DNA of 64,000 nt, from assembly GCA_000091205.1 (NCBI GenBank), contig AP006489.2; one strand, 5' to 3'. Source of the stretch: Cyanidioschyzon merolae. Lineage: Eukaryota. Below are positions 3,271 through 61,859 of the stretch, in pieces. The translations under genes were made by a program, and so were the position numbers. The notes beneath the pieces are model-generated. The model was not told the DNA's origin. It made no database searches and saw only the letters and a program-made list of their open reading frames with translations. Each line of letters opens with the position of its first letter. The stretch's first letter is position 1.

Positions 3271-3329
3271 CCATCGATCCACGTCCTACTTCCAAGTTCC
3301 ATACCTCATTCTTCTTCTCGGATATACTC

Positions 3330-9852: not shown

Positions 9853-10339
9853 TCATACTTTTTTTGTGTATGGCCTCGATGCGCACTTCGTAGCGGTGAC
9901 GCTCGGCACGGGTATGGTAAGGGGTTTCCATGTAAGAAATGTGCTTTCACCTGCGGGCGGTGCACGACGGTGCATGAACGCCTGCCTCATGGCTCGGTAC
10001 ATGCCCTTGACAGGCGTACAAGGCTTTCCTCGATACTCGGCTCGGTTTCCGCCCCGGTGCACCGCACCCTATGATCACAGGCTTTTTCTGGGCGATCCCC
10101 TTGTCAAGGACGCGGTCCGCCGCACGCGCAAGCTGTTCTGTTCGATACAGGATTTGCGGAATGCGATGCTGTTCATAATGAAACAAGTACCGGAACGAAA
10201 CTCCATCTTGGAGAACAAGTCGCGCAGCATCGATTCGTTTGCGTTGCTTTCGTACAAAGCGGTGGTGTACGCTCTACTGGAAGTGATCGCTGCGATGACA
10301 GGTGCCCGAGTCGAACACCCTTCCCGACGCAAAAGATAG
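9853..10339 (-). pseudogene. TnpB/Fanzor-like nuclease fragment (copy A), frameshifted and truncated before the zinc finger and RuvC-III
   Basis: Consecutive minus-strand ORFs in different frames carry LFSKMEFRSGTCFIMNSIAFRKSCIEQNSLRVRR and then RGKPCTPVKGMYRAMRQAFMHRR..FLTWKPL. These align residue-by-residue with copy C (35.5-35.8 kb): DMDFAFRARFIINNITLH and KPKVSVKGMYRVMKQFLTRH..VDIWEH. Confidence 0.5.
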
Positions 10340-11093
10340 AGATGCAGACGCTATGGAGCATGCTCCGCGATAGGTAGCATACTGCCGTAAAGTACCGAAT
10401 CATCAACGGCTGCAGAGAGAGACAGCATGATTTGTCTATCGAATAAAGTCGGTTATTTAACGGAACAAGTTCAGTAACGTTTTTGCATGAGCCTGCGACA
10501 AAGGATTCTGGGAGATTCTTTGGGGGGTTTCGTTCCCCCAGCAACCCAGCGGCATGCTCAGTTGCGCCGCCGAGTTGCCTCAAAAGATAGTCGTATAGAA
10601 AACCTGAAGCAGTTGTGATATGGGCATGGTACACGTAAGGAAAGGAGCAGCGTGGACTATCTTACACACGAATTGGATAAAGATATCGCGTACCTTACGA
10701 AGCTTTGCTCAAGATCGTCTCAAACCATCTTGACTCCTGGAATGTCATGAATTCCAGTGGTAAAGCATCGAAGGAGCAACGCTGAAAACGCGATCAAGAA
10801 CCCTAACGCTGCGTGTGAGTCCGTGAACCCCCATTGCTGCCATTCGAATGCCACGGCTATCTATCTACACAAATTTTCGGAAAATAATCGAAAGCCTGGA
10901 AGAGAGCACCCAGTACCGTATTCCGAAATGTTCTGACATGGGCGTGCGACACAGCTTCCGCCAATTTTGAGAAGCGCGCTCCGTGAGCCGCGCCAGGTAT
11001 TCGAATACTTTAGACGTAGACAGCGTCTTGGTACCAGCATCCATAAGAGATGCTGTTTGGCAGCTACTGGAGCCCAGTGTGTGGCTGGTTTGA

Positions 11094-11128
11094 CACCACC
11101 ACCACCACCACCACCACCACCACCACCC
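11094..11128. repeat. (CCA)n microsatellite, about 11 units
   Basis: Run caccaccaccaccaccaccaccaccaccaccacc seen directly. Confidence 0.95.
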
Positions 11129-11734
11129 TGGATATGCACGCTGCCTGCAGAGGTTCCCTAGCGAGTCCGCAGGCCGCGTACCTGGCTGGCCAGATACCAC
11201 CTCGGTGTTGTACGTGGTGCACCGGTGTTTCGTGTCGTTTCACGTGCCAAGTACCATTCCACCAGATGTCTCTACTGGATTCCGGGTTTAGCGAATGGTC
11301 CCGCTTCCTCCACACCTAACCACGATTCCGTCACAAAGAAGCTGCACGGCGTGCCGCGTTCTCTCTTCCCTTGAAGACGCTTCCATTCCCAGTGCGGTAT
11401 GCGAACGGACGCTTCGCCGCCTCCGTTTTGCGTCAGGCAGCGCTGGTTAGACTCAAACTCATGGAGAGACGCATCTGCAAAGGCAGAGCAGCCAGTTCCA
11501 CGCTGAGTGCCGCTCGTCGTCGTCATCATCACCATCGACGAAAAGTTCTGCGCTGAGGCGCCTCGCCTCTCCTGTCAATATCGTGGAGCGTGGCGCGCCA
11601 CTATCGACGCTAGCGTGGCCAACTTCCAGACGCGAAACATCAAGCATTGGGTACTTGTTCGAAAATCATGCCTCTCCAAGTGCCAATGTATCCCATGCGA
11701 GCGCTCCAAGTGCCGGTCTGGTTTACAATGACGT

Positions 11735-17430: not shown

Positions 17431-18037
17431 CGAATGGAGTCTAGAGTGGGTATCGTCGAAAAATACAAGTCTATGATCGTTGACGAATTGCCCACGACAA
17501 TCGTTACCAGTAGAAAGAGGTAGAGAGAGAGCTATGCGGCGCGTCAGGCTTGCTCAGTCGCTGAACCCCTCCATACCAGTCCTTTGATCAACGCGAGCAT
17601 CCAGAGCGGTATCTCCTGGTCACCGAGTTTTTGCATCGGAATGCAGCTGCGTTTCAGTACAATGGCCGCACAGAGTGCGAAACGAGTCTCGTTCAAGTTC
17701 GCTCGACACGAAACCGCTGGACGCGACTGAAGCGCAGGACATTTCCGGGTATCGATCGCTGCATGCAAGTAGCGGTTCGGAAAGTGCATGCCCTGCTGGG
17801 TACTGGTGGCATCGCAACACAGCAAGTGTCACCACCAGGTCGATAGTCGCGCCATCTGATGTTGCATCAGTTACCCGATGTACGATCTTGTGAGTCTGGC
17901 TCTGTTTCACGCGCCTCTACGCTGCCGGATTCAACAGGCACCTGTGCTCGCGATACACGTACTTTGTCCTTATTCATTCGCGAAACTCGCATAGATCCGA
18001 TTGCTGGACTCGGTGTATGCTCCTGTCGATAAAGTCG
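17431..18037. repeat. Dispersed 606-bp repeat, copy 1. About 99% identical direct copy at 25076-25682.
   Basis: Both copies begin gaatggagtctagagtgggtatcgtcgaaaaatacaag and end gatccgattgctggactcggtgtatgctcctgtcgat. I found only 4 mismatches by eye. Flanks are unrelated. Confidence 0.9.
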
Positions 18038-21244: not shown

Positions 21245-22460
21245 GTGTACGCCAAGCAGCGCAGAGGGCGGCATCTAAGCGAGTCGCGGCGAGGCCGCGA
21301 GCGGCGACCGCATCTTCCTCATGCTGTACCTTACGCACTTTTAGGGATATATCTGGACTTCATTGGCCTGTCCGATGCGTGCGCGCCTATTTTTGTCCAT
21401 TTTGATGCAATGCTGACCAAGCCAGCGTTCTCTGACCCGGTGCTCGGTATTCGCACGCGGTGGAGCATTCGTGATTCCAGGGCCCGCTTCCAAGTCCCAG
21501 AACCCATCCTTCATCCCGTATACACAGGTTGCTTCATTCGTTCGATCGCTTGCCCAGCGTCTCCCCTGATCGTCCGCAATACTGCCTGTACCGTTGGTAC
21601 GGATACAGCACGGATGCAGTACGGCGTTGCTGTGGTAAACGAGGGCTTCGGGCTCGAGGTTTGCCTCAGACGACACTGAATCAGGGCTCGTCGCCAGTTT
21701 GTGCTCAGCCAGTCTGCGGTTGCAAACTTGCCTTCGCTGCACGACACGTTGGAGCAACTTGGCTGTTAGGATGAATCCTGGGAGGCGCCTCTCTCCTTTG
21801 TGATCGTTCATGGAATGCACGATCGTTTAGCGACGCGGGCTATTGCTAGGCACCCACCAGTGGGTAGGCGCAGAAAGCGCACTGGGCCCGTGTGCGCATC
21901 CGATTCGCTGGACCTTTTGCCCAGAGGGTGGCTTGGGCGCGAATGTCCGCCAGGCCGCCGCCTGTCTGTGGCGCACGAACGCTTGCTTCATCGGTCGGTG
22001 CATGCGACGGGCGTATGCAAAGGGTTACACCCTGGATGCTCCTCTCGGTTTGCGCATCCGGTGCTGTACTCTGCGATCATGGGCCTCTTCTGGGCGATTG
22101 CCTCGGCGAGTGCTCTGTCTGCTGTAAACACAAGCGCAAGCGGTTTTACTAGATAGCGGTTATGTTGCATGGGATTTCATATTCTTGATGAAACAGGTAC
22201 CGGGAGGAAAATCCAGGCTGGAGCAGAAGTCGAGAAATGTCGATCTGCCAATGCTCCTTTCGTCCAAATAAGCGACGCCCTGGACATGGAAGCGATCGCC
22301 ACGATGGCTGAATTCCGAGTCCGAGGCCTTTTTCCAGGCACACAGAAGAGACGGAACCCCCTGGGGGCATAGTCCATAAGATGCAATGCCGCTGCCTGGT
22401 GCCGTTCCCGTGAAGGCCACAAAGAGAGGAGTCTATGTCTGTCATTCGGAATCAATTATG
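21245..22460 (-). mobile_element. TnpB/Fanzor-like element remnant (copy B) plus a downstream conserved hairpin-rich element shared with 3340-3450
   Basis: Minus-strand ORF ending at 22160 has LDFPPGTCFIKNMKSH, the family motif seen in copies A, C and D. Interval 21540-21650 is about 80% identical to 3340-3450, with core gcctgtaccgttggtacggat.cagc.cgg...cggcgttgc.gtg. Further minus-strand similarity (MHKEKLKPLEG vs MNDHKGERRLPG) runs up to about 21820. Confidence 0.45.
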
Positions 22461-22984
22461 ATTTGATTTGACAAGTTCTCGGAAAGTTCGGCTGGAGCTT
22501 GTGTCCAAACAGCGTCAGGCCGACGTCGAGTGTGTTTTTCCTCGTCAGGCCAGCGGCACGAGTTGCTGCATCCATGCATTGCCATGAGATCGAAGTATAG
22601 AAAATTTGGAGAATGCATGGTTTCGGCATGCGGGACGTTTGCAACATTAGAAAATTGGAGGTGTGTACATACGCACTGGATAACGATATTCGTTATTCTA
22701 CGAGCACGCGTTCACTAGCGACGCCAATCATGACGAATTCGTTGACAGCACGCATTCTGGCGGCAGCGTCCCAAAAGATCGATTCCGATGAACGCGACCG
22801 TGAAACCCAAAACAACGAATGATTCGATGAGCCCTGATTCATGACCTTCGAAAGCCGAACCTGTACAGCTTCAAAAAAACTTTCGGAAAAATATTCCAAT
22901 GGTACGAACAGAGCAACCAGTTTAGCGTTCGGTTTTCCGCTTTACGGATTCAAAGCACCGCACCTGGTGCAAGCCGCAACTGCA

Positions 22985-25075: not shown

Positions 25076-25682
25076 GAATGGAGTCTAGAGTGGGTATCGT
25101 CGAAAAATACAAGTCTATGATCGTTGACGAATTGCCCACGACAATCGTTACCAGTAGAAAGAGATAGAGAGAGAGCTATGCGGCGCGTCAGGCTTGCTTA
25201 GTCGCTGAACCCCTCCATACCAGTCCCTTGATCAACGCGAGCATCCAGAGCGGTATCTCCTGGTCACCGAGTTTTTGCATCGGAATGCAGCTGCGTTTCA
25301 GTACAATGGCCGCACAGAGTGCGAAACGAGTCTCGTTCAAGTTCGCTCGACACGAAACCGCTGGACGCGACTGAAGCGCAGGACATTTCCGGGTATCGAT
25401 CGCTGCATGCAAGTAGCGGTTCGGAAAGTGCATGCCCTGCTGGGTACTGGTGGCATCGCAACACAGCAAGTGTCACCACCAGGTCGATAGTCGCGCCATC
25501 TGATGTTGCATCAGTTACCCGATGTACGATCTTGTGAGTCTGGCTATGTTTCACGCGCCTCTACGCTGCCGGATTCAACAGGCACCTGTGCTCGCGATAC
25601 ACGTACTTTGTCCTTATTCATTCGCGAAACTCGCATAGATCCGATTGCTGGACTCGGTGTATGCTCCTGTCGATGGAGCTGG
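25076..25682. repeat. Dispersed 606-bp repeat, copy 2 (direct orientation relative to 17431-18037)
   Basis: See copy 1. The duplicated ORFs in the track (17544..17825 and 25188..25469) are identical. Confidence 0.9.
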
Positions 25683-27866
25683 GGTGTGGATTTTGCGGGC
25701 GGCAGCGCATCCAGCACCATAGGCTATTACCGAACGATGAGACTGGCATGTCATTTTTTCTGGTGCACTGAATAAATTGGCGAATGCACGCGTCTTGGCT
25801 CCGAACAATCAAACCCATTCGCGACGTGAGCCCGGTCTTTTGAACTCCTGCAAATGATCGTTTGCGCATAAGATGTAAAGACGTTCATGTACACGCTGAA
25901 TAAAACCTCCAATGTATCTCGCTCCGCTCCATGCAGTACGGGGTGCATCGACATGCGTTCTGACGTGGTCATGTCGCTCGTTGGTATGCCTCGTGACGCC
26001 CATTTAACTCGAATTTCGATCAAAACAAACGCTGGAGTGATAGAGTATCTGCATTCGGCTCGGGTCTTTGGCTTCATCCCCTTGATTTAGCGGCCTTGGC
26101 GACGACCGCGACACCGTGAACTACGGGTTCCAGGCTCACCACGAGGCTTTTCTCGTTGTCAATTGTGAACGGTTGGCAGTGAAGCTCGTTGCTCGACTCT
26201 GGTCCAGATGCTGCGAACTGCATGCAGATTGATGTTCCGTGGGTCTCCCGTATCCCTGAAAACTTCTATCTATTTGTTTCCTGTAAAACGAGAAACAATG
26301 TACGCGCTACGCCAATCCTTTTCGCAAAGCTGTTTGAGTCGTTCGTAGTTGCTCGCAGTAACTAGCTCCTTCTTCGCCTTGTCTTTTACTTGGCGGGTTG
26401 GTATACATAGGGTCACTGTACGCGATATACGGTTATTTTACTCGGAATGCAGACGAACGGAATGGGCAGCGGTACCAAATTTCGCCTTTTATAATCGTAT
26501 ACCCTCTATTGTACAAGTGGCGTTTCTTATCTTCTCCGCCGAATGCACGTCCATGGACCGAAGCGTGTCCCTCTGCTCCCGAGCGTATTCGAGCAGGAAA
26601 GCAACCCCGCAATTCATGGCTGGCGAAAGTGGACACGGACTTGTCTACTGGTACATTAGTAATAAATAGTGTTTTGTCAACAGAGAAGACGCTTTCAATT
26701 TGAATGAACCGGAATGAATAGGCTGGTTCGAAGAGCACCTCAACGACGCACTGCGCTCCATGGTCGTTGTTGATTGACGGAAAACGACCTTGTCGAAAAG
26801 CAGGACAAAAGCATGCCGGTCGGAGATCCCACGAAACGTGCTTCGACGACAGATGAGGTTTCCCATGACCCTTCCTGTATGGCAACTTGTCAGCGATTCC
26901 ATGACAGCGTCGCCACACGGGCTGATCTCGTCTCCATGTTCGCTTGATTCTCCTTTCCGAAAAGCGGCTCTCCCATTTTTGAGAACGCAATATCCATCGC
27001 CTCTATTTTCCCACGAATAACGTCCGATCGAATGAGGCGTTCATCCGTTCCTACTGAAACAAGCGTTTCCATTGCAGCACCAAGTCGATTACGCGACACA
27101 GAACGCACGAGCGAGTCTCGCCGCTGAAGCGCGCTTCTCCCTGGCTCCACCCGAGTATCTCTATCAGCCTCGGTATGAAGCATCCTGGAACTGCATATAT
27201 GCTGTGCCTCTCATGCTGGTGTTTCCTGGAGCATGCACGTCGTGGAATGATCTGAGCAGCACGCTCAAGTGTAGAGAACATGTATGGTGCATTCTGCTTT
27301 TTTTTGAGCGCACGACGTCCATGATCTCGACAACGACCGGGACGATTCATGCGTTCTCTCTGACCCTCGTATGACGAACTTGTAAGCGTCGGGTCTGTCG
27401 TTGACCAGCCAGCAGTGACGCCATCGAGTCTCATCGCGAGCTTTCGCCGACCAACAGGAATCGTTCTTGTTGTTGAATACCACCGAGAGGACCGAATAAA
27501 ACCAGAAACGGCATGCTGGTACGGGCATTCCGGATAAGCACAAGCACGTCAGTGGTCGATACCTTTACGTCACGCGCATCCTCAGCACCGATTCCTACGT
27601 ACCCTAGTCTCTATAGTTGCTCATAACTGAGACGAATATGACGGAACATGTCGCTCGCCTCCTTCGATTCGCATGCCGCTCACGACCGTCTCCGCGAGAC
27701 GTGCACACTTCACGCTGCGAAAGAGGAGAGCGCTCTCACCTGAGCGCTTTCCAGTTGACCGTATGTAGAAGAGAAACTGCTTTTCGTGGAGATATCTCCC
27801 GTGAAGCCCACGCAGCGCCAACCCTGTGCCACAAAGACCGCACGATTCTAATACCATCACTGCTAT

Positions 27867-32333: not shown

Positions 32334-34691
32334 TCACGCATGCTCCCGTGCAGCGTCTCCAGGCGGTGGCAGCAGCGGCGCTTTGGCGGCACTCGTGGAA
32401 AGCAGCGCGGCAACCACGGTCACGTTGTCTTGAGTCTCTCGCTGTAATGCCTCCGTAACCAGGCGGCGTGCCAACAGACCAGGGACCTGCACAGTGCCTC
32501 GGATGATTTTCGCTACTTCACCGACATCCATGACATCCCAGAGACCGTCGGTGGCAAGGATCAGGATATATTCTCGATCGGGCTGCAAATGCTGGATGTA
32601 GAGCTCAGGTTCCGCAGTCAAATAGCGTTTGAGCGCAATGTCCCCGATCGCACGCGTAACCAGCGTAAGACCCTCAACTCGAAGCGTACCAGCGCTATCT
32701 GCAAGGACCCGTGCGCCTTGTTCTTGAAGACGTGCACGTTCCTGTGAAGACGCTGTACAAGTTTGATCTAAAGTGACGAGGATAGGCACCAAGGCCGTAT
32801 CGGGTTGCACTTCAAAGAGCACCGCCCTGGAGTCCCCGATATTTGCCACATATAACGTGCCGCTGTGCACCATCGCCACAAGTGCCGTGCTGCCAACAAG
32901 TCCTCGCTTCCCGAGGGCCTGTGATGCGTCGTGCTGGGCGCACCACAGCGACCAGCACATATCCACGAAACAGAGAAGCTCGCGCAGCACTTGTTCGGGG
33001 CGCATTTGCGGGTTACGACCCAGCAGCCTCTGGAGAGCATCTGGAATCAGAGCCGCCGTAAAGTCAGCTGCCTCCACACCACCATGGCCATCGAAAACAC
33101 CCAGTATATGGGAACTGCCCCAACAGGCGAGTGCCGGTCCAGACTGGACAAGCTCTATTGACAATTGCAATGGAGATGCTACCAGGTGACGATCTTCCAT
33201 ACGATCTGGTCCACGACGACCCGACACGGCATACGCCTCCGCTTGCACCCGATCTGAGCGATCTACAGAGGCAGGTGAGCTGCTTCGGTCGAGACGTTGG
33301 CGGAAACCAGCAGGCGCGGCGCTTCCCGTATCGCTAAGCGGGAACGGGCGATGCGCAACGCTCTGAACCAGTTCATGCGCTATGGTGGTGATCTCGTGAG
33401 CGTCCTTTCCAAAGTACGAAGCGGCGAGCGCACTCGGATCGGTTTCAGAAACAAGGTCAGCACCGGTAGCCGCAGAGGCCTGACGAGTGCGCTCCGCTGG
33501 ACCTCTTGGGGTCTGCGATGCGTCCACCTCGTCGTCGCCGATGTGCGTTGCCCACGCAGCGCCAGCCAAGGCGCCCTCTGGGTTCTCCGCCAAGGTAGAA
33601 CGCAGTATCCTGACCGCTTTAAACGAGGAACGCTTCAGCTGGTCAACCAATGCAGCTAGTTCCTTCACCACAGCTGACATGGCAGGCCGTCTCGCAGGGT
33701 CCGCATCCCAACACCTTTCAATGAGTTCGCACAGGCGTTGACCCTCGCGACCTCCAAGTGCATCCACATCCAGTCTGGGTCGCAGGTGCTCGGTAACGAT
33801 AGCCGTTCGTAGCTGCAGCTCGTTGAAGCGTGTCTCCAGAACCGTGTGCAGCTCTGGCTCGGAAAGTTGTCGATCCACGTAAGGCACAGAGGCGGTGACT
33901 ATCTCATTCAGCGTGATACCGAACGCGTAGACATCGGATGCATACGTAGATCCCCAGCCTGAACGCTCCGCGCTCAGAAGCTCCGGCGCCATGTACACGG
34001 TCGTACCAACCATATGAGCAAGACGTCCGGCACTGGGTCCAACGGGCAAAGGCGTGCCTTCGGAATGCAGACGATGCTTTCCTTCGTTAGCTTGTCGAAT
34101 AGCATGCGCGCTTGACTCCCGTATGGATTCCGTGTTTGGTAGCGAGTGCGAGTTGCTCATGATGGCGAGTTCAAAGTCCGCGAGCAGGACGCGATCATCT
34201 TCCAAGAGCAAGTTGGCCGTTTTCACATCGCGGTGGATAACACCAAGCTCGTGCAGGTTCTGCAAGCCGATGGCGAGCTGCAACGCCCACTCGAGTCGCT
34301 GGAGAATGCTATGGGTACCGGGCGTTGTCCGTTTATGGAGGACATCGAAAACGCAGCCCCCAGAGCACCAGGGCGTCACCGTGCAGTAAAACGGGGGCGC
34401 TTCGCATACCGCTAACAGCGGCAGCAGACCCGCCGGCATGCTTACCTTCTCATCGCCACGCTGGACGCAAGTTCTCTGACGTGCACGCACTGTAACATAG
34501 TGCTGCAGGTGAACCTGAGAGTGAAAGCGTTCCAACGCTGCGCTGGATGTGATGCGTGGCTGCCTCACCGCGACCGCCAGACCGTCCAACGTACCGCGGT
34601 ACACAGCGGCACCGCTACCTATAGCCGCTGGGTCAGCGAGTGGTCCCAGCTCAGCGCGAGACACCTGACGAAGTTCGCTTACAATGGACAT
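32334..34691 (-). CDS. Bifunctional protein-kinase / PP2C-phosphatase fusion protein (N-terminal kinase domain, C-terminal PPM/PP2C domain)
   Basis: Kinase motifs: VIHRDVKTANLLL, LADFELA (DFG replaced by DFE), YMAPELL. PP2C motifs: GVFDGHGG, LATDGLWDVM, DNVTVV. Single 785-aa ORF with ATG start. Confidence 0.85.
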   Translation of the reverse strand: MSIVSELRQVSRAELGPLADPAAIGSGAAVYRGTLDGLAVAVRQPRITSSAALERFHSQVHLQHYVTVRARQRTCVQRGDEKVSMPAGLLPLLAVCEAPPFYCTVTPWCSGGCVFDVLHKRTTPGTHSILQRLEWALQLAIGLQNLHELGVIHRDVKTANLLLEDDRVLLADFELAIMSNSHSLPNTESIRESSAHAIRQANEGKHRLHSEGTPLPVGPSAGRLAHMVGTTVYMAPELLSAERSGWGSTYASDVYAFGITLNEIVTASVPYVDRQLSEPELHTVLETRFNELQLRTAIVTEHLRPRLDVDALGGREGQRLCELIERCWDADPARRPAMSAVVKELAALVDQLKRSSFKAVRILRSTLAENPEGALAGAAWATHIGDDEVDASQTPRGPAERTRQASAATGADLVSETDPSALAASYFGKDAHEITTIAHELVQSVAHRPFPLSDTGSAAPAGFRQRLDRSSSPASVDRSDRVQAEAYAVSGRRGPDRMEDRHLVASPLQLSIELVQSGPALACWGSSHILGVFDGHGGVEAADFTAALIPDALQRLLGRNPQMRPEQVLRELLCFVDMCWSLWCAQHDASQALGKRGLVGSTALVAMVHSGTLYVANIGDSRAVLFEVQPDTALVPILVTLDQTCTASSQERARLQEQGARVLADSAGTLRVEGLTLVTRAIGDIALKRYLTAEPELYIQHLQPDREYILILATDGLWDVMDVGEVAKIIRGTVQVPGLLARRLVTEALQRETQDNVTVVAALLSTSAAKAPLLPPPGDAAREHA

Positions 34692-35225
34692 TTGAAGCGT
34701 CTAGGTAACGCTAGTCACCTAAACTTCCAGCGATCCTGCCAAGAACGTCGGTAGGCAGGCAGGCTGGCTGGCTGGCTGGCTAGCTGGTAAACCACAACGC
34801 AGCATGCTGCAGTGCAAACGGATTCAAAGGGAACACTGACCTATCTACTCGCTATATCGCTGCGTTTCTATCTTATTCAGACCTTTTTTAGTGTGCAGCC
34901 TTGGCATTCGCACGGAAGCAAGAGGGGTTTACGAAATCCTACCTAGTTTTGCGATTCTCGGTCGTTTTAGCGGAGTTGTGCCTTGGATGCTTTGTCGCTG
35001 GAATTCGTTACGTTAAGGAAATGAAGGTGATTCGCGTCGCCGTCGAGCAAGAGCTCCTTCAATGATCGATATCGGGACTTCATGCATACGTACTAACCTC
35101 TATTTTTCTCCGTTGCTTCAGCGTACAACGTGCAAATCAGGCATGCTTGGAGGTTTCGACCTCTCTATTTAAGGCTTCTCGTGAGTGCAGCTAATAACGT
35201 CACTGGACTCACGCGGAAATAATTC

Positions 35226-36040
35226 TTGACGACACCGACCATCGATGACTTGTTCAACAGCTCACGTCAAAAGATCACTGAGCTAATCACGTCAAATACT
35301 CGATTCCGTTCGACGGACATATCACCCCGTCTTCATGAACATGGAAGAGACAGCATTCCACAGCGGCATGACACCTCGCCGGGTAATACGCTCGAAAGGC
35401 TACCGTCTCCTCTGTTTGTACGGAAATTCGCCATGGTCTTGGATTTGAGTCATCATAACGACTGCGTCCAATGGGCAGTGCGTCACCGAGTTGCACGAAG
35501 TAAGCGTCGACGGGTCGTAATCTATCGACTTGTTCTCCGATATGGATTTTGCTTTCCGTGCTCGTTTCATCATAAACAACATTACACTCCACATTTATTC
35601 CATCGAATGGGACAGCGTACGCTTTCATGAGCAGCGGACAGCGTACTCGCCGAGGAGGTTGCCCACAACAACAAGTCCACGATCTTATTGTATGGAACCA
35701 AGCGCGGAAACGGAGCAGCGGGCATTGGAGGAAACCCAAAGTATCTGTCAAGGGCATGTACCGGGTGATGAAGCAATTCTTGACGCGCCACAAGGCGGCG
35801 CCCGGAAGAGTAGATACGGTGGACATATGGGAACACATGACGACAACCATATATAACCGCTGCAAGCGGCACACCTGGCCAGTATACAAAGGAGATGGAA
35901 ATGCCAAGCGAAGCGTCGATGCCAATGATCGCCTGTACATGAAATGCGTTGACATGAACTGGAAGCGGCGAAACCGCGACTCGAACGCCGCCATCAACAT
36001 CTTTCGACTGCCGAATACGAATCTGGAAGTAAAGTGAGAG
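35226..36040 (+). pseudogene. TnpB/Fanzor-like RuvC nuclease remnant (copy C). The most complete copy; split over three frames.
   Basis: Frame a: FAMVLDLSHHNDCVQWAV (RuvC-I-like, GIDLG-type). Frame b: DMDFAFRARFIINNITLH. Frame c: KPKVSVKGMYRVMKQ...YNRCKRH...MKCVDMNWKRRNRDSNAAINIFRL (zinc-finger remnant plus canonical RDxNAAxNI RuvC-III). The upstream extent is limited by the kinase-PP2C gene, so the N-terminal domains are missing. Confidence 0.65.
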
Positions 36041-36242
36041 ACCGACGTATTTAAAGCTTCAAAAACGAGAGAGAAAAAGCCGGCAAAGACTGGTGTTGAT
36101 GATAATGGGTAACGACGAAAACCTGAGCATGTAACTCCTCCGTGCAAGCGGGACACGTTCCATTTCATCATGATACGGACGTCGTCCATACGTCTCAATG
36201 AACGTAACAGATCCGTTCCGTTTCATGCTGACACTGGTGTCG

Positions 36243-36677
36243 TTAGCTTTGCCGGTCTTCCCGGGTTGCGGCAAAGGCGTTGGACGCGCCGGGCGTCTCC
36301 GGGGCCGCCCCGCGCGCTCGCAACTCCCAGACGGGTTCGTAAGGTCCCGCTCGGCGCCCTACGGATGCATGGGCGTTCTCGTCGTCCTCAGCACCGTTGG
36401 CGTACAAGCGTTCCGCGTCTTCTGGTGACAGGAGACGCGATCGAAAACATCGCACAAGCCGCCGCACCTTGCCCACGCACGAGTCCACCGTACCATTCAT
36501 GTAGTAGTACCGAAACTGGTACACTGGACTGTAGCAGAACCAGAGCGCATCCAAGTCAGGAACACAGCTCTCAGGTACTTTAGAACTGCTACGTTCTCCG
36601 GCCAGAGCAACGTCAGTGCGATGGCTTGTCTGGGAGTCGGCGGGCACAGCCGACGTTCGCGGCTCGGCGGCTGCCAT
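36243..36677 (-). CDS. Twin Cx9C (CHCH-domain) protein, probably mitochondrial intermembrane-space
   Basis: CVPDLDALWFC (C-x9-C) and CVGKVRRLVRC (C-x9-C) lie 22 residues apart. Small 144-aa ORF with ATG start. Confidence 0.5.
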   Translation of the reverse strand: MAAAEPRTSAVPADSQTSHRTDVALAGERSSSKVPESCVPDLDALWFCYSPVYQFRYYYMNGTVDSCVGKVRRLVRCFRSRLLSPEDAERLYANGAEDDENAHASVGRRAGPYEPVWELRARGAAPETPGASNAFAATREDRQS

Positions 36678-38072
36678 GATGAACTGCGACCCCAGATAAC
36701 GCCTACTCGTTGTTTTCTATCGCTGCGTTAGGTGCCGTAGCAGGTAAACGCAAGCGTCTATCTCGAGCAGCTCAAACGCGAGCAGTACCCACGAGGCATA
36801 GCAGCGGCTTGTGCACCATATCGCAAAAGCGTTTTTTCGTCTGGCAGTTGACGCCCGTGTGCAGCAAATGCGGGTGCGTTCGGCTTCGCACAACAGCTAT
36901 CCATTATTTTCCCAAATAATACATACATGTACAGTAAAATCGCATATGCGTGCCAGAGGTCCTGGTGTGCATGCGCATTTCTCTATGGCATGGGATGGGT
37001 GGCACGAACCGGACATCGCTCCATGTGTGCGCTCTCTCGAAGCATCTGGGTATGCATGCGGCATACCGCTCCAGATGCTCAGGTTCCACCCGCCGTGTTC
37101 ATCATTATCATCATCATTACCGTGAACGTGTTCTATACTTCCCATTGGAGATGATGGTTCGTTCACGTCATCTCCCTGGTGCCAGGCATGCTATGTGCGC
37201 TCACCGCAACGACTACGGCGCCGGTACGGACGCTGCTTGGCGACAGAACAAGCGCACGAACACGCTTCCAGCCGCTGTGGACACAAGCGTTTGGCGCACG
37301 AGCCGGTACGCGCACCCTCCGCAAGGCCTCTGGCATGCTGGTCGGCGTGTTCACGATAGCACCGCGCGGAGTTGCGCAGTGCGAACGAGACAATAGCGAT
37401 ACCAACGTGCTGCCTGCGATGCGCCGATGACATCGCCTACGCAGAGCGGCGACAAAGATGCAGGCGGCATAGCGCAGGCATCATCCAGAAACTATGTCGG
37501 TGGCAACGCAGCGAGCTGTCATCTCTTGCCCGCAACGAATGACTCGCCTTTCGCAAAACAGGTCCGCCGTCATCGATCCCTCCATGCAGCACTCGTGCGC
37601 GCAGGCGTCCGTGGACAACACACTGCAGTCCGGTACAAAAGCCTTGCTCCAAGCGCATCTATCCGCAGAAAAATTGACGCTTCGACTTGCTGCTGTGGAC
37701 GACGATACCACTGCCAGCGCCAGACGCGATGCAAGCGGACGTGACACCCTACAATTGACACCAGGCGCAAGCATGCACCCGTAAGCGATCCGGCTCCATT
37801 GGAAAACACAACCGATATGGCAACACGGTCGATAGCGACGATGCCCCTGCACTCGACGTATCGGCAATCCGGAGGTGCCTACACATCGACGGCAAGCCGG
37901 TCGACCGCTTGCGGCAAGCAGAAGCGCGGTTTCGGCAGGCACTAGGCACACACGATAGGACGTATGAAACGACCAGAATATCCGAGAAGAAGTATAGGGA
38001 ATGTAACTTGGAGGTAGGGTGTTTGATGGATACTTAAGCGTGCACTGAAAACCCCACAAAAAGAAAAGAAAA

Positions 38073-38615: not shown

Positions 38616-40956
38616 GAGGCCTTCGCCCCCGCGGACCGCGACAGTGTTTGTGCTCCAGACCTGGTCAAGTGGTATTGATCGCCTGCGAGGTGTATTTGAC
38701 ACGAGCTGCCCCGAATAGCGGCCTGTAGGCATGGTGAAACAAGCGAACGTATTGGACCGCTACGCCGAGTCGTAACGTATAGAGGAGCTCGTTATGTGCT
38801 CGGCATCGAGAGTTCTGGAATACATGTATCATCATGATCTTTTTGACTTTGTTCGTCGTTGTCTCGCGGAGGTATTGGACAAAGGGAATGAATCCTGTCG
38901 ATAGGGGGAAACGCCGCGGAAAGAATTCATGCTGGGGCTGCTCGCTTGCGAAAAACTGGTTCACTCGCCCAAGTCAGTCATTCTGGCATTCAGCACGTAC
39001 TTGAACCGAGCTTCTCGTGGCGCTGATGCCGAACCTCTTGCACCCAAAACGGAACCTGTCGTTCTCTATTTAGACAAATGTCTGACTGGTTGTCCATACA
39101 TTCCCGTCCGTAATTTCTTTGTGAAAACCTCTCAAAGAAGCCACAGGACGCGACTTTTTCGTACTAAGGATACGAAAAGTGACGAAGAGGCACTGATGGA
39201 CATAGGGAGAAAACGTGCTTCTACGGGACTCCGTCACGCGTTGCACAGCACACGAACACTGTTGTACTGAAACGCAAACGCTTCCCACACAATGGACGAG
39301 TGTTCGTCGCCCTGGACGTTACGCGATTCGAGAAAAACGCTCGACCTGTATACGGTACTCAAAGAGGTTTAGAACGCTGTCCGTACAGAAGATGCAAGCG
39401 AGCATGACAACAATAAAAGTCCTAGCGGCTCTTCAATGGTGCAATCGCCTACATATCACCAGGCGGAGAGGATCAATCGACATCTCATTGTTCCTTGACG
39501 CGTGCTTCGTGGCTTCTCCTTCCTCGGTGCTGCTGTCCTACTCTCGGACAAGGTCGCCGTCCATCAAGTAAAAGCGGTCATGCGGCACCCGACATACGTT
39601 GGCGTTGAGCTGATCTTCGTACCAGCTTCTGCGTTCTGGTGCAATCCAGTCGAAAACAGCTTGTCTAGTGCGAAGCGCCGGTTTTCGCGCCCACGGATCA
39701 ATAGATTGGTCAGTTGCACCCACGACGCTGAAAGCTGCAGGATGCCACTGAGGATCGCGTAGCTTTCTAGTCGAGGAAGGCTCGCCTAGCACTCATCGCC
39801 TCGACGCACCTCGTCAAGCAAATGTGCGTAAGTTTCTCGGACACACGGCATCGAGCTGTCCTTTTTCCACTCGAATTTTCTGATGAAATTTCCCTGCGAC
39901 AGTACAACGGATATTCGTTAGAAAGCACGCAACTCGATCTGATGTAATGATCAGAGGTTTGGAGGCACACTTCCCAGCATACCTTCAGACGTGGACGCGT
40001 CACGTTGTCAATTGAGGTAAACGATACAGCACAGGTGTGAAAAATTATTGAACAAGACTCAAAAAGCAAATCCATTTGCAGGTCAATGTCGAGCGATTCA
40101 TGAGGTCTGTCTCGTGAGCGTTGTACGCTCAACTCGCTGGTCCAAGAAACTGAAGACTACTTCAAGCGGATTCCTTAGGTGTCTATAGAGGCGAGTGGCG
40201 AGCTGGTGATGAAGCGCTCGAAATGGCAGCGAGTTCGGAAGAAAAGTCATTCCAACAGCGACAGTCGCTTCAGACCGTCCAAGCACATCCTAGTGTGCTC
40301 GGTGCCGGGCCGACGGACGTCACCTGCAGAGCATGGTTCAGACGTCATGCCTGCCTTGCTTGCATCCTGCGCTACTGCGTTTCCCAGAGGAGAGCCATCC
40401 CGGGGGGAATCGGATTTCCTTCCAGCATCCGAGCGTCTTGGCCTGACCGAGCGTCCACTGGATATGGTCACCAGTTGTCGAGTCAAGACCCATGAGATCA
40501 CCGTTGACATTTGTTTGTAGTAGTGCATGGACTCCACAGTAGGTCATGGTAGGTCTCTGTGAGCAAGCATGAAGCATTCGAACAAGATCGTGATGAGTAT
40601 GGCCGTACATCGTTCATGGCTCCTGGGCTACCGCGAGGACCTGGAAAGAGGTTCGCATTGGCGGTCAGGATCGACGGAATATCCAACTGAATGCACTCTG
40701 TGAAGTATAGACCTGAGTTCAGCACCGACACTCATTCTCATCCGTCCTAAGTAGCTGGACGTACGTAGAGAGGTTTCGTGGCGAGCATGCGTTTCGAGTC
40801 CAAGAACATCGTTGCCGTCTTCGCAGCTCTGATTCAAGAGGATAGAGCCAACGACGTGCATAGAACGCCAATGATGCTGCTCAACTTCTCCAAGGCTCTC
40901 TCTGATCGAGATTCGAGTCTGATGGACGCAAGAAGCCACACCAGCTACTGCAGTGA

Positions 40957-41874
40957 ATGCATTGTGACCATCTCGACGCCCTGAGTATCGTAACGGGCAG
41001 AGACGGGGGATGCGCTGTGCGCCTCGTTCAGAGCGTTCACGAGCATCCACAGAGCTCATACCGCAAAATTTTGGCGATAGTGGACGAAACCGTGTTGTCG
41101 TCGCCGACATTGTCGGTTGTGCGGAGGCAACAAGCGTGCATTCACCAATATCTTCAAAGAGCTGGAAAAACTGAAGCCCATAACTCGCGTCCTTGGGTTG
41201 CAGTCTACGGCGCCAGACATGCCGCTGTGCGCAAGGGCCGTACTCGTGCCTCTTCCGCCAGAGCGTACAACGAATTCAGGAATCGATTCTATACGATTTT
41301 CATCGATGATATCGTGATTCTATCCACGCATCACGAGCAAGCGTGCACAATGAAACAGGTGGAGAGGCAGCGCTTGCAACAGAGCCGGATGGATAACGTG
41401 GTGGTGTACCGTACGCTGACCGAATGCCAGATAGCGAGACGATCGAAAAAGAGCGGCTTGCTGGTATGTGATTCAACCAGAAAACACACGCGGACGCATT
41501 TCCTGTACCGAGACTTGACCACCACGATCAACCTTCGGAAACGTCTTGCGCTTCCACAGCATCTGGCGGCTTTTTTTCGACAAAGCTTTCAAGCGAATCG
41601 TTTGGTACTCTGTGTGGGCATTGGGCTAAAATGCGCAAGTCCTTCGATGAAAACATCAGTGCTCAGGAGCGAGGGCATTGAATCGTCGCTTGGACCACTG
41701 AACTGGGGTTTTACGCTTCAGCTACCCAGCAAGGCTGCTACTGGGCTCACAGACACCTGGAACACCTGTCCTTGGCCATCGATGAACGATATTGGTGTTC
41801 CATTATTCGATATTGCAGCGTGTGCACGCTTGAAACCAACGCTGCATTGTTTCGATATAGACAGGATTACCTAG
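40957..41874 (+). pseudogene. LTR-retrotransposon (Ty3/gypsy-like) reverse-transcriptase fragment
   Basis: SSARAYNEFRNRFYTIFIDDIVILSTHHEQ...LQQSRMDNVVVYRTLTECQIARRSKKSGLLVCDS. This matches the RT motif block NAPATFQR.MN / YxDDIxIxS / L..H.LY.KLSKCEF....V.FLGHVVS. No intact gag, protease or integrase nearby. The surrounding sequence is AT-richer. Confidence 0.4.
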
Positions 41875-48639: not shown

Positions 48640-49900
48640 ATAGTAGACGCCGGGGGGGGGGGGTCTCTGTTTCTCAAAAGCTTGTTCTTTTTGTCCTGGT
48701 AACACGGGGCTCTGGTCACTAAAAAGCCCTAGTTCACGCACGGCTATCTTCCACCGAAATCGGAACTAGAGCGTTCCTGGAAAGTCACGACCCGTATGAA
48801 GCACGGACGTCGCTTTGCTTTTCCAGTTAATGAGACTCTCTTCGGACGAAACAGTCGTAGCGTCTATGGGTATTCGCGGAGCAGGGATCCCGTCGTAGGT
48901 ATACACGATCGTACTCGAAGAGAACGAGGGAATCATCATCTGTTCTAGGTGCAGTGGATTCATTTGGCAGGTCAGCTTTGGCTCGTAGAGAGGGTTCGTA
49001 CATCAGCACAAACCACTTTTTCGAAGACCTGAAGACTTCTCCCTGACGTCTGCCGACATGTTTCTATTGGAAAATTGTGGTATTTTACCGCTCTCTTTGC
49101 ATTCGAGCCTTTGCCGATTCTATCAGGGTAGAGCTGCTTTTCAATCCTGCGTACGCTTCGTGGTTGAATCCCGTTGAAGGAGTCGTTTCTATCGTGAAAC
49201 GCCATGGTCGCTGCACTGGGCGAATTGATGAAGCGTTCAGCATACGACGACACACGGGCGCACATCTCGACTTTCTTCCGCAAGTCCTTCTCGCCTCGCG
49301 AAGGTCCGAACCTGCGGCTTGCAACAGGTCCGTTCATTCGACGAAATAAAGAATCCCATGGAGCGGTATGTGCACGCAAGTCGAGGATCCTGAAGCGCTG
49401 TTACCGCCGGATGCCGAAAGAAAACGACAAAATCCTCTTCTCGCCGACCATGGAGCGAAGCAGACCAAATGACGAAAAAGAAGAAGAACGGTTGAGATAG
49501 GCCAGAAAACGTGTCCGCCCGACGGGACGATCACGAGACTTTGGTGACACCGAGGACACGAGTTGAACGAAGCCCTGCATTGGCGCGTACCACCAGAGGC
49601 AGTTCACGCGAGACGTTCACGAACCGAGGCGTTAACGCCACCATTAATATCAGACGTTGTGCGGTGCGGAATACGAGACCTGAGAAGTTTAGGCGATCTA
49701 ACTTTGTGGAGCAGCCTCTCAGGGTCGAAGTGTGCATGGAGAAGCTGAAGCCGATAGCACGCGCCCCGTCGAAAAAGGCTGAGAGACGTCTCCACATCAG
49801 GGGTTAGATATTCAGTCTATGGATGTCAAAATCATAGCGTGTAATGGCGAAACAATCTTGTCGGCATTGGCGAGTTGGGATGAGGATCCGGTTCAGGGTA
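48640..49900 (+). mobile_element. Degraded composite DNA-transposon remnant, copy 2 (inverted relative to copy 1 at 3330-4620): Tc1/mariner-type transposase C-terminal fragment plus TnpB/Fanzor-like RuvC-III fragment
   Basis: Plus-strand CIRAFADSIRVELLFNPAYASWLNPVEGVVSIVKRH (compare Tc1 [33 protein letters not shown]). Plus-strand 49620-49660 gives NRGVNATINIRRCAV (degenerate RDxNAAxNI). Homology to copy 1 is listed under that feature. Confidence 0.55.
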
Positions 49901-58916: not shown

Positions 58917-60701
58917 TGTTCCCCTACAGACTACACCGCCAGGGCCTGCGGCAACAAACGCGCTGTAGAGGCAGCGCGTTTCTCCACGGCGATATGCGAT
59001 ATTTGCCGCCGCGTCCACGCACTGCACCATTGCGTACCGGGAGGCGATGCCTCGAACTGACTGTGCTCGACGAGTGTGCGGTTGATATCGGTTGCTGGAG
59101 GCACAAATTTCGAATTATCGGGCGACAGGTCCACGATCCTACTCCAGGCAAGTGCGACTCGGCTTGTCCGCCTGGTCATTGTGGCCCAGAGCGCGAGCGA
59201 GCGCCACCTTCCGGCGCCTGTGAGGCTGCCTCGGCCCCGGTACCACGACGTATGCAAGTTCCCGAAACGAGGTCCTCTATGCTACTGGTTGTCCACGTGA
59301 TCAGTCGGTGCCTGTGACTGAGCCTTCTCGATGACATTCGCTCTCGTCGATCATATTTTCGTGCTTCGCAGCGGCGCGTGCAGGCGAACGCTGCGATCCG
59401 GTGCGGCAACCTTGCAAGCGCGAATGCCCTGCTCTTGATAATTCGATGCTTTGCACGCGCAAACGGGTTTGAGTCACAACTATCTGCATAGGATCATGAA
59501 AGACGAACCGGTGCAATGAGGCATTCAGGAACGGGCGCACGGGCCTCGGAGTACCGGCTCTGAGCGGGCGATGTCGACGAGCGCGTCGTCAATACGCGAT
59601 TGCGACCAACTTGGGGCCGCAGCAAGCATCAGCGGCCTCTCTGGCAACGCATCGACAACGAGACGAGAGACTGCTCACGTTAGACGTGCAACCTGATTCC
59701 ATCGAGGCCATGGGAATCGCCAGACTCGATACAGGGTTGCGGGGCACGGCCGTCGATTCGCCTGCAACGACATACGACGCTGTTGCTGTTGCCCGGGACC
59801 ATGCCATCTTCAGAGCGAGCGATCGACTTTGAGCGGGGCCCTCACATCCGACCAGCGAACAACGTGTCAAACTCTTGGACTGGAACGCTCGTTCTTCGTA
59901 GCAGGTAGAGCGAAGCGCGATGATAACCCATCTCTAACCATAAAGTACCCTGCTCGCGTGCACGTCGTTGTCGCTTTCCTCGATGGCTTCCCGAACGCAA
60001 CACGCAAGCGTCTTGCAGCATGCATCTCCGTAGAACGTCGCTATGTCGCGAACCGACACGCACAAGGGTATAGGAAAGCTGTTTAGCCGCTGTGCTGCAT
60101 CTGTTCCAGCGGTTTGAGCGCTACGGCGGACGCTCCAAGCACGAACTCGGCGCACGATAGAACGTACAAGACGACCAGTGCATCTGGATGGGAGTATCAG
60201 CAATGCAGCTTGGAGGCAGGGTGCAACAACATCATGGACGCTTTCCCGAAAGCCTATTCCCATCCGAATCGCACTCTGGAGTCCGTGATCGAAGGCAACG
60301 TTTTGCGATCGGACGCGCAGATCCTCAATCGCCGCGCATGCATGCTCGTGTTGCCATGCCGCGCAAGTGCATTGCGCTGGGGCGGCGAGGCGCGCTTCTG
60401 TAACTGTGGCACATTTGTCTAATACAGGCGACGCGCCCCCGCAGCAGCCGCAGCGACTGCATATCGGGTCGAGCGGGCGTGCAGGCATACGCCACGAACG
60501 CTGGCGCATGCTCGCGTGACTGCGGGCATTTTTCAAGGTCGACTGTCGGAACGTACCGTAGTGGAGCTGCACACGGGCGTACCTCTCACTTGTTTGAGTT
60601 AACTGTTTGAAAACATAGCGCGTAATTGATCAGAGAGGGGTTCGGAGAGAAAGAGGGGTGAAACGCTGTCCTGGGCGCTGAATTATTCGCAGCACGGACG
60701 A

Positions 60702-61694: not shown

Positions 61695-61782
61695 GAGGGT
61701 ACCAGCATAAATCCGGTTTGCTCTTGTTTCTTTTGCGTTCAAAGAATGCCTGTCAGCAGACAGGGCTTTGGATGAGAGACGC

Positions 61783-61809
61783 GCAGTAACGACTACTACT
61801 ACTGCTACC

Positions 61810-61853
<44 letters not shown>

Positions 61854-61859
61854 CACAGA
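61783..61859. repeat. Trinucleotide microsatellite (ACT)n/(GCT)n
   Basis: actactactactgctaccactactactactgctgctgctgctgctgctgctgctgctgcc seen directly. Confidence 0.95.

Follow-up and report, generated by a model that had tools for sequence, protein, structure and literature searches.

In a 64,000-nucleotide stretch of the Cyanidioschyzon merolae genome (contig AP006489.2 of assembly GCA_000091205.1; "the window" in what follows), positions 34810-36181 (+ strand) are very probably (about 0.88) a dead copy, copy A, of an ancient non-autonomous cut-and-paste DNA transposon with a Tc1/mariner transposase front and a Fanzor1 tail. The original prediction, made from the DNA letters, had placed here a Fanzor pseudogene at 35226-36040, in three pieces and three successive frames. 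Its three peptide strings do lie on the + strand where it put them, and the locus is indeed a pseudogene; the repeat-derived sequence is larger, however, and its Fanzor-derived part uses two frames and begins only at about 35599. The eukaryotic nuclear setting was borne out by exact protein matches to the C. merolae 10D RPS15 and kinase-PP2C.

Copy A is a full-length member of a 1.38-kb repeat family, here called family 2, and was delimited by DNA similarity to other copies (about 34.9-36.1 kb), by the conservation profile of a 17-copy alignment and by terminus mapping. Three further copies lie on the - strand of the window: copy B at 9557-10938 (full length, 75% identity to the consensus), copy C at 21956-22936 (truncated at its 3' end, covering consensus positions 16-984) and copy D at 61968-63342 (full length, 73% identity). 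The four copies in the window and 13 distinct copies from hot-spring metagenomes (n=17) yielded a consensus of 1383 bp with 26-bp terminal inverted repeats (TIRs) at its ends, holding transposase codons 1 to ~240 and then the last ~180 Fanzor codons, joined out of frame; in this majority consensus an open Fanzor frame of 180 codons is regained. Copy A is 76.6-77% identical to the consensus by direct pairwise alignment and 74.6% identical to a consensus made without it (about 75-77% in all), and the family copies, nearly all full length, show 68-75% identity to consensuses made without them. Fifteen of the 17 aligned copies are full-length units of ~1.38 kb with the junction between the two genes; copy L036 is without ~80 consensus positions, and copy C retains the junction despite its cut 3' end. 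No intact ORF is present in any family 2 copy seen here. The window is rich in relics of transposable elements of several families, and at least 10 Fanzor relics (family 2 and CMe-1-type) fall within it.

The decayed 5' TIR of copy A occupies 34810-34835 (CAGTGCAAACGGATTCAAAGGGAACA; consensus CACTCGTGTCAGATTAAAACGGAACA) and the decayed 3' TIR 36156-36181 (CGTTCCATTTCATCATGATACGGACG; consensus TGTTCCATTTTATTCTGACACGGGTG), both on the + strand and both located by mapping the termini of the 17-copy consensus. The consensus termini pair as an inverted repeat with 23 of 26 matches, a score reached by 0 of 2000 shuffles, and the TIR tip CACCCRTGTCAG is common to family 2 and to an intact element, L043, described below. 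An inverted-repeat search of six decayed copies scanned singly detected no TIRs, which are visible in the consensus only. In 14 of 16 copies the base directly after the 3' end is a T; few of these relics, whose flanks are heavily decayed, have TA on both sides, and TA flanking both TIRs was seen only beside L043.

Positions 34891-35598 (+) preserve, in one frame, what is left of codons 1 to ~240 of a transposase of the Tc1/IS630 (DDE_3) type. This part was recognised through the consensus, the translation of which matches Pfam DDE_3 at 41.4 and 39.4 bits (gathering score, 28.6) and aligns with an intact 307-aa transposase, P0178, from Met1 to the second Asp (30% identity over 243 aa, E=2e-24); the translation of copy A itself gave no Pfam match for the transposase part. 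The consensus transposase aligns to copy A over 34897-35619 in a single frame (48% identity, E=8e-60), and this frame runs without a frameshift from 34891 to about 35619. In copy A the start codon has changed from ATG to GTG (34891), the first catalytic Asp to Glu (35344-46) and the second to Asn (35575-77), and seven in-frame stops have accumulated (35014, 35170, 35182, 35227, 35284, 35446 and 35518). A complete D, D, E triad is absent, the third residue having been deleted in the progenitor of the family: the junction falls ~8 codons past the second Asp, and in P0178, as read directly in its sequence, 34 residues separate the second Asp from the Glu. The segments that had been taken for the RuvC-I and middle parts of a Fanzor both belong to this transposase. 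DMDFAFRARFIINN, the string with "...FIINN", is its second-Asp motif (DNxxFH, here D>N; consensus FIMDNIAFHKS), and FAMVLDLSHHNDCVQWAV (FAMVLDLSHH), the source of "VLDLSHH", is what the remnant yields when read out of frame; its ancestral frame at that point is GNSPWSWI*VIITTASNGQCVTEL.

The transposase gives way to Fanzor at a deletion junction at 35593-35604 (+; transposase ...AFHKS / LYRMEQRALA... Fanzor). In the consensus the switch takes place within ~6 nt and with a 1-nt offset between the reading frames, a single-nucleotide statement that, with 17 copies at ~70-75% identity behind the consensus, could be a consensus error. The first Fanzor segment, FHRMGQRTLS*AADSVLAEEVAHNNKSTILLYGTKR at 35598-35705 (+), was located by tblastn with the intact relative P0057 and with the Fanzor part of the consensus; a profile of intact relatives matches 35598-35729 (14.9 bits, 1.9e-6), and an in-frame TGA at 35628-35630 interrupts the conserved QRALAxAAD motif. 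The second segment, 35684-36121 (+), is reached via a +2 insertion at 35718-19, was recovered by Pfam, phmmer, profile and consensus alignment, and includes the ORF at 35627-36037 (136 aa, ending in ...NRDSNAAINI), the stop of which is created by a +1 insertion at 36035; a 19-nt deletion follows 36071, and the consensus stop lies at about 36125. Copy A thus keeps ~175 Fanzor codons and not an uninterrupted ORF of ~600-800 aa. The breaks between frames had been ascribed to frameshifts or to short introns, and the former stands: the TGA at 35628, the +2 at 35718-19 and the +1 at 36035 are simple stops and indels, not GT-AG introns.

The published Fanzor motif, D-X(125,275)-[TS][TS]-X-X-C4-X(5,50)-RD (Bao and Jurka, 2013; PMC3627910), was used to judge what is left of the nuclease. 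As had been proposed, a zinc-finger remnant precedes the RD, and the [TS][TS]-x-x-zinc-finger...RD C-terminus is kept, with two cysteines lost. The second segment carries the Fanzor1-conserved Glu (WEH, 35831-33), TT (35840-45) and a zinc finger in which Cys1 has become Tyr (35852-54, TAT), Cys2 remains (35861-63), Cys3 has become Tyr (35936-38, TAC) and Cys4 remains (35945-47), so that CxxC...CxxC now reads YxxC...YxxC; the family consensus has all four cysteines (KCHRC...LCMKC). The C-terminal RD (RuvC-III) motif is present (NRDSNAAINI, 35972-36001; RDSNAAINI, 35975-36001; Asp codon GAC, 35978-80). The Fanzor1-conserved Gly (xYGxG) and Glu read LLYGTK and WEH in copy A, and VGYGTG and WEH in the consensus. 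The RuvC-I aspartate is absent: the match of copy A to the intact-relative profile begins only at profile position 525, and the sequence upstream is transposase-derived.

The profile search that had been proposed as a check gave a divided answer. The ORF at 35627-36037 scores 20.6 bits (E=5e-4) against PF07282 (Cas12f1-like_TNB / OrfB_Zn_ribbon), below the gathering score of 26.3, whereas the family consensus reaches 27.3 bits, above it, and a profile of five intact relatives of 680-760 aa matches copy A over 35702-36058 at 65.9 bits (6.9e-22). Searched as a single sequence, the ORF had no meaningful match in NCBIfam or PDB, and a word-indexed protein search found an allelic copy, P0001, as its sole match. 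When 1.84 billion proteins were searched exhaustively with phmmer, 90 relatives emerged at E<=1e-3, among them intact proteins of 536-756 aa that score above the PF07282 threshold. The predicted C-terminal TnpB/Fanzor block is accordingly real and far beyond chance, and chance similarity was set aside on the profile and relatives scores.

When five of the intact relatives were scored against PF07282, three gave 32.7-34.9 bits (above 26.3), and P0057 and P0031 gave 24.4 and 16.5 bits (below it). The intact relatives possess RuvC-I (LDPGRVNLY), and hhalign of these with the published Fanzor1 CMe-1 gave 98.2% probability (E=6e-14), covering the IETDGV and DPG (RuvC-I) motifs. The best PDB match of their profile was the Spizellomyces Fanzor1 (8GKH), marginally (E=0.018). 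On these motifs and alignments the intact relatives are assigned to the Fanzor1 type, as against Fanzor2 or TnpB. The original prediction had also put the locus with Fanzor and not with bacterial TnpB, and TnpB was rejected on the grounds that the relatives show Fanzor1 motifs and are carried by Tc1-type elements of eukaryotic style. A virus link hinted at by contig L002 found no support, as an IMG/VR scan yielded no viral relatives of the intact Fanzor. An AlphaFold2 model of the intact relative P0022, from a 5-sequence alignment, reached a mean pLDDT of 50.9 and less than 50 in its RuvC half.

The intact relatives also show how the two genes belong together. L043 (~3.2 kb) has the layout TA / TIR - DDE_3 transposase - 698 aa Fanzor - TIR / TA, with TIRs of 30 bp and a transposase scoring 104.8 bits against DDE_3. 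A DDE_3 gene and a PF07282 gene occur on the same strand on the ENA contigs ERZ1426603 and ERZ1426850 with P0178, where a 636-aa Fanzor adjoins the transposase, and on L042, L043 and L044. The points equivalent to the family 2 junction are nt 966 and nt 2888 of L043, ~1.9 kb apart. Because these intact ~3.2-kb relatives have the complete TIR-transposase-Fanzor-TIR layout, family 2 is interpreted as an internal-deletion derivative without ~1.9 kb. The progenitor would have been a Tc1/mariner-IS630-type element of ~3.2-3.3 kb (TA / TIR - DD34E transposase - Fanzor1 nuclease - TIR / TA), from which an internal deletion of ~1.9 kb would have taken the final third of the transposase gene, its third catalytic residue with it, as well as WED/REC and RuvC-I, the initial ~70% of the Fanzor gene, so that both TIRs were left on a unit of 1383 bp. 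The analogy of other DNA transposons with internal deletions suggests that this shortened element may have been mobilised in trans by the transposase of full-length elements; it would then have spread to many intergenic spacers of the compact genome before decaying neutrally. For C. merolae itself, the 64 kb of genome and the metagenome fragments contained no full-length progenitor. The loss of the N-terminal WED/REC part had been blamed on the neighbouring gene; the deletion, which also took RuvC-I, instead dates back to the progenitor of all family 2 copies.

Copy A fills ~88% of a 1551-bp spacer between the start codon of the kinase-PP2C gene (34691) and the stop codon of a PANTS-like gene (36243), lying 119 bp upstream of the ATG of the former and 61 bp downstream of the stop codon of the latter. 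The kinase-PP2C gene is on the minus strand, and position 34691, previously read as its end, is its START codon. Compared with contig L001 from another strain (99.3% identical), copy A has 14 SNPs in 1372 nt (1.02%) and the kinase coding sequence 4 in 2358 (Fisher p=7e-4), and other nearby non-coding DNA has 0.7-1.1% SNPs. All disruptions of copy A are common to both strains, and no indels separate them within the element. Copy A varies between strains like other non-coding DNA, that is, by neutral decay.

These data bear on whether the locus does anything at present. A Fanzor gene that still works or was inactivated recently, its frame changes being short introns, could be argued from the 136-codon ORF with its intact RD motif and conserved Glu, and the five strain differences inside this ORF (2 non-synonymous, 3 synonymous) are too few to test. 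Against it, the first ~70% of the gene is gone, a TGA interrupts a conserved motif, alignment to the consensus resolves the frame changes into indels of 1-2 nt, two zinc-finger cysteines are now tyrosine, and the SNP density is the same as that of other non-coding DNA. Introns, moreover, are reported in fewer than 30 C. merolae genes, and we regard the chance of a live gene as negligible. With no RuvC-I, two of four zinc-finger cysteines lost, both retained transposase Asp mutated, nine stops and several frameshifts, copy A is, as judged from its sequence, enzymatically inert; since RuvC-I and the N-terminal domains that bind guide RNA are missing, nuclease activity is out of the question. Co-option of the relic, for instance to serve the flanking genes as a promoter or terminator, is compatible with a dead transposon and fits its large share of the spacer and the presence of the insertion and all its lesions in two strains, but the strain SNP density stays within the non-coding range and the family has no conserved sub-block beyond its coding-derived parts, which leaves such a role unlikely.

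The origin of the element can be questioned in two other ways. Since C. merolae has ~150 copies of CMe-1A, a Fanzor1 element, each ~80% identical to their consensus (Bao and Jurka, 2013; PMC3627910), and six CMe-1-type relics lie within the same window, copy A might be expected to be one more of these; yet tblastn with the published CMe-1 protein found nothing at 34.8-36.2 kb at E<=0.01, across 150 aa the family 2 consensus and CMe-1 share just 24% identity (E=3e-5), and a DDE_3 transposase, none of which is described for CMe-1A, precedes the Fanzor in the intact relatives and in the family consensus. We consider this highly improbable. Two unrelated fragments lying side by side through nested or adjacent insertions, instead of one deletion-derived unit, would be easier to imagine in a window so dense in relics of several families; this is scarcely more probable, as the same junction occurs, within a few nt, in 17 of 17 aligned copies at unrelated loci (15 of them full-length ~1.38-kb units), the outer ends of family 2 pair as an inverted repeat, and in the intact relatives both genes recur, identically ordered and oriented, between homologous TIR tips.

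The internally deleted transposon can also be taken further, if speculatively. Family 2 may represent a second, previously unlisted, Tc1/IS630-borne Fanzor1 lineage of C. merolae whose derivative perhaps succeeded by keeping both of the sequences required in cis, the TIRs for the transposase and the Fanzor 3' end, the omega RNA site, and so supplying guides to Fanzor in trans. On the same reading, family 2 and CMe-1A together would account for far more of the intergenic DNA of this compact, famously TE-poor genome than is usually stated; we hold this extended reading to be doubtful. An omega-RNA-like structure sought in the 3' 187 nt of the consensus was no better than shuffles (z=-1.27), these had no Rfam match, and dead copies cannot show covariation.

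If the dead-transposon reading is right, C. merolae has at least two distinct Fanzor1 lineages, one of which came on a Tc1/mariner-type vehicle with intact relatives persisting in environmental DNA. A plausible earlier reading is corrected, in that only the last ~175 codons are Fanzor and the remainder is Tc1-type transposase. The 1383-bp consensus can be used to mask and count the repeat in Cyanidiales genomes, and many metagenome "hypothetical proteins" (among P0001-P0090) can be flagged as pseudogene fragments. Neither a new kind of system nor a working nuclease is revealed.

Nor is the locus the first record of Fanzor in this genome, as had been suggested: Fanzor1 (CMe-1/CMe-1A) was reported for C. 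merolae in 2013 (PMC3627910), and copy A belongs to a different family, one not among the C. merolae families listed there (Bao and Jurka, 2013). CMe-1A is ~3.2 kb long with no TIRs, a classification given as unknown, no transposase assigned and some copies with intact ORFs (PMC3627910). CMe-1/CMe-1A and family 2 share a genome, the Fanzor1 superfamily, great age, high divergence and high copy number, and differ in having only 24% identity across the C-terminal 150 aa that both possess. The RNA-guided DNA endonuclease SpuFz1 of Spizellomyces punctatus (PDB 8GKH) aligns from the E-x-x-TS-x-C zinc-finger region to the NRD motif; by comparison, copy A is without RuvC-I and the guide-RNA-binding N-terminal domains. 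Like internally deleted, MITE-like Tc1/mariner derivatives, family 2 has both TIRs, no complete transposase, a uniform length and many dispersed copies, and unlike classical MITEs it is longer (1.38 kb) and holds recognisable coding remnants of two genes; a de novo MITE survey reported none in C. merolae (PMC3964958). The closest known counterparts are the Mariner/Tc1-type Fanzor1 elements PUl-1 and PUl-2 of Pythium ultimum and PGv-1 of Phaeocystis globosa virus, which have TIRs of ~24-33 bp, a TA duplication and a length of ~3.3-3.8 kb and encode a Tc1/mariner-type transposase and a Fanzor1 protein (PMC3627910). The contigs with L043 and P0178 agree exactly with this layout as described, whereas C. 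merolae family 2 is a 1.38-kb internal-deletion derivative with partial genes only. Family 2 is thus apparently a distinct, unlisted Fanzor1 family of an already known kind.

The three peptide strings on which the original prediction of a Fanzor-like nuclease relic was based are present on the plus strand within 35226-36040, and the strongest belongs to a 136-aa ORF (35627-36037, plus strand) with the C-terminus ...CKRH...MKCVDMNWKRRNRDSNAAINIFRL. This ORF is part of a decayed repeat, copy A (34810-36181, plus strand), flanked by a kinase-PP2C gene (32334-34691) and a PANTS-like gene (36243-36677), both on the minus strand; position 34691 is thus the start codon of the kinase-PP2C gene and not its end, as had been assumed. 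The RPS15 and kinase-PP2C proteins of the window are exact matches to C. merolae 10D proteins (BAM79624.1 and BAM79627.1), which identifies the window as nuclear DNA of this strain.

Alone, the ORF matched Pfam PF07282 (Cas12f1-like_TNB, formerly OrfB_Zn_ribbon) at E=5e-4 and 20.6 bits, short of the 26.3-bit gathering score, and single-sequence searches of NCBIfam and PDB gave no useful match. Exhaustive phmmer searching of 1.84 billion representative proteins yielded 90 relatives at E<=1e-3, the majority fragments of 60-280 aa. The few long relatives are P0022 (682 aa), P0031 (756 aa), P0043 (536 aa) and P0020 (376 aa), and long cluster mates include P0112 (698 aa), P0121 (692 aa) and P0124 (701 aa). 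P0022, P0043 and P0020 exceed the PF07282 gathering score (32.7-34.9 bits), and P0057 (24.4) and P0031 (16.5) fall just under it. A profile built from five long intact relatives (A1) matched the window at 35702-36058 (65.9 bits, 6.9e-22) and 35598-35729 (14.9 bits), had Spizellomyces Fanzor1 (8GKH, E=0.018) as its top solved structure, and aligned by hhalign to CMe-1, the published C. merolae Fanzor1 protein (98.2% probability, E=6e-14), with the IETDGV and DPG (RuvC-I) motifs inside the alignment. From these relatives, Pfam scores, profile matches and alignments, we identify the C-terminal block as genuinely Fanzor1-derived.

No viral relatives were detected when IMG/VR was scanned with the Fanzor profile, and AlphaFold modelling of an intact relative gave a structure too poor for use (mean pLDDT 50.9). 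Intact Fanzor P0057, a cluster mate of P0121, is encoded without a transposase at 5569-7224 of the contig L002 (JGI 3300035702, 7757 bp), where genes with RNA_ligase, 2H-SAK and Peptidase_S74 domains form a virus-like context.

The region is repeated on the minus strand of the window near 9.6-10.9, 22.0-22.9 and 62.0-63.3 kb (copies B, C and D), in each case decayed, and a metagenome scan with a consensus peptide added 38 loci representing 13 further distinct copies. A majority consensus of the 17 copies (MAFFT alignment) defines family 2, with a conserved unit of 1383 bp bounded by 26-bp inverted repeats, CACTCGTGTCAGATTAAAACGGAACA versus the reverse complement of TGTTCCATTTTATTCTGACACGGGTG (23/26 matches, a score reached by 0/2000 shuffles). 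Almost all copies are full length, and each shows 68-75% identity to a consensus from which it was excluded. The terminal inverted repeats (TIRs) are seen in the consensus and were not detected when copies were scanned one at a time, target-site duplications were not readable in the relics, and neither an omega-RNA-like structure nor an Rfam match was found for the family. ORF fragments of dead transposon copies account for dozens of 60-280-aa 'hypothetical proteins' in metagenomes (clusters P0001-P0090 and P0166-P0177); P0117, a member of one such cluster, carries the source label tRNA(Ile)-lysidine synthase. That so many of these clusters are mutually <50% identical suggests that the genomic copies number many dozens. 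Low-complexity runs lie beside the window copies B and D (10860-11320 and 61660-62150), where ORF translations contain poly-G/W/P, poly-T and poly-A/V stretches.

In the consensus, one frame reopens a 180-codon Fanzor C-terminus (...YRMEQRALACAADSVLAEGIAQKKPVIVGYGTGRGNGAGHRGEPSVPVKGMYRAMKQAFTRHR...DIWEHLTTAKCHRC...FRLCMKCVDNSRKQRNRDLNAAINIL...) that passes the PF07282 gathering score at 27.3 bits. Directly 5' of it lies, in a different frame, the coding sequence of a DDE_3 transposase (MYSLDIRSAAIRAY...FVAIDETAFDSSMIPLTGYAPRGSRLF...VIAAIASSG...CFIMDNIAFHKS) scoring 41.4 and 39.4 bits on PF13358 (gathering score 28.6), which aligns from Met1 to the second Asp of P0178, an intact 307-aa HTH+DDE_3 transposase (30% identity, E=2e-24), and with copy A in a single frame at 34897-35619 (48% identity, E=8e-60). 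The transposase runs to ...AFHKS and the Fanzor from LYRMEQRALA..., the change falling within ~6 nt and the halves being one nucleotide out of frame. At copy A, tblastn with intact relatives places Fanzor-derived sequence in two frames only, from ~35598, and not in three as originally read. The supposed conserved middle segment, DMDFAFRARFIINN, is a decayed LDFPSGTCFIMDN, the motif of the second catalytic Asp of the transposase, and the supposed RuvC-I, FAMVLDLSHHNDCVQWAV, comes from reading the transposase remnant out of frame; the ancestral frame of the remnant there is GNSPWSWI*VIITTASNGQCVTEL. The original observation is partly confirmed and its interpretation partly supported.

Between its decayed TIRs (34810-34835 and 36156-36181), copy A has a transposase start changed from ATG to GTG (34891), first and second catalytic Asp replaced by Glu (35344) and Asn (35575-77), and seven in-frame stops in the transposase frame (35014, 35170, 35182, 35227, 35284, 35446 and 35518). 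Beyond the deletion junction (about 35599) are a TGA within QRALAxAAD (35628), a 2-nt insertion (35718-19), the conserved Glu of WEH (35831), a zinc finger YxxC...YxxC with Cys changed to Tyr (35852 and 35936), the RuvC-III Asp (35978), a 1-nt insertion (36035), a 19-nt deletion after 36071 and the consensus stop (about 36125). Lacking RuvC-I and the N-terminal domains, and with a broken zinc finger, stops and frameshifts, copy A cannot act as a nuclease.

The same locus in another strain (JGI contig L001) is 99.3% identical over 6.4 kb and shares every indel in copy A; a 9-bp (ATC)3 length difference lies at 37106. SNPs number 14/1372 (1.02%) in copy A, 4/2358 (0.17%) in the kinase-PP2C CDS, 0/435 (0%) in the PANTS-like CDS, and 8/1099 and 11/966 (0.7-1.1%) in other non-coding flanks. 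SNP density differs significantly between copy A and the kinase-PP2C CDS (Fisher p=7e-4), and copy A behaves neutrally between strains.

Two ENA contigs encode P0178 and, 3' of it in the same orientation, a 636-aa PF07282 protein, and a DDE_3 gene lies directly 5' of the intact Fanzors P0124 and P0112 (contigs L042, L043 and L044). L043 holds a complete element of ~3.2 kb, in which TA-flanked 30-bp TIRs (232-261 and 3426-3455) enclose a transposase (282-1284, DDE_3 104.8 bits) and a Fanzor (1313-3409), and its TIR tip CACCCATGTCAG matches CACCCGTGTCAG of family 2. The transposase N-terminus (282-413, consensus residues 1-49) is in another frame than the rest (454-966), which could reflect a short intron or a frameshift; the gene caller starts this gene at 523. 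Since the family 2 transposase and Fanzor parts map to L043 282-966 (42% identity, E=1e-40) and 2888-3361 (51% identity, E=2e-44), respectively, family 2 corresponds to a derivative with about 1.9 kb deleted internally. This derivative may have been moved by DD34E transposase supplied in trans by full-length elements, and with a divergence from consensus of about 25-30% it has probably been dead for long.

Bao and Jurka (2013; PMC3627910) described one Fanzor1 family in C. merolae, CMe-1/CMe-1A, of which CMe-1A is 3169 bp long, present in about 150 copies ~80% identical to the consensus, without TIRs and unclassified. Because the CMe-1 protein has no tblastn match at 34.8-36.2 kb and shares 24% identity over 150 aa with the family 2 consensus, copy A is assigned by sequence comparison to a second, distinct C. 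merolae Fanzor1 family. CMe-1 tblastn identified six CMe-1/CMe-1A relics in the window, at 3512-3811, 17694-17876, 25338-25850 and 63416-63679 (minus strand) and 39926-41589 and 49502-49798 (plus strand), all decayed (24-48% identity); the relic at 39.9-41.6 kb covers residues 131-697, split into short ORFs. With the four family 2 copies, at least ten Fanzor-bearing relics occupy ~10 kb (15%) of the 64 kb. Nucleotides 1-630 of the CMe-1A consensus, also found in the separate repeat TE-N2_CMe (Bao and Jurka, PMC3627910), match at 3285-3457(+), 9262-9300(+), 37934-38018(-) and 60049-60311(-) with 75-87% identity. The literature searched contained no description of mariner-type Fanzor elements from C. 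merolae. Copy A is an ordinary fossil, left in the genome by an element of a known type whose family is unlisted for C. merolae in that literature. The L043/P0178 layout is that of PUl-1, PUl-2 and PGv-1, which encode both a Tc1/mariner transposase and Fanzor1 and have TIRs of ~24-33 bp and a TA duplication (Bao and Jurka, 2013; PMC3627910).
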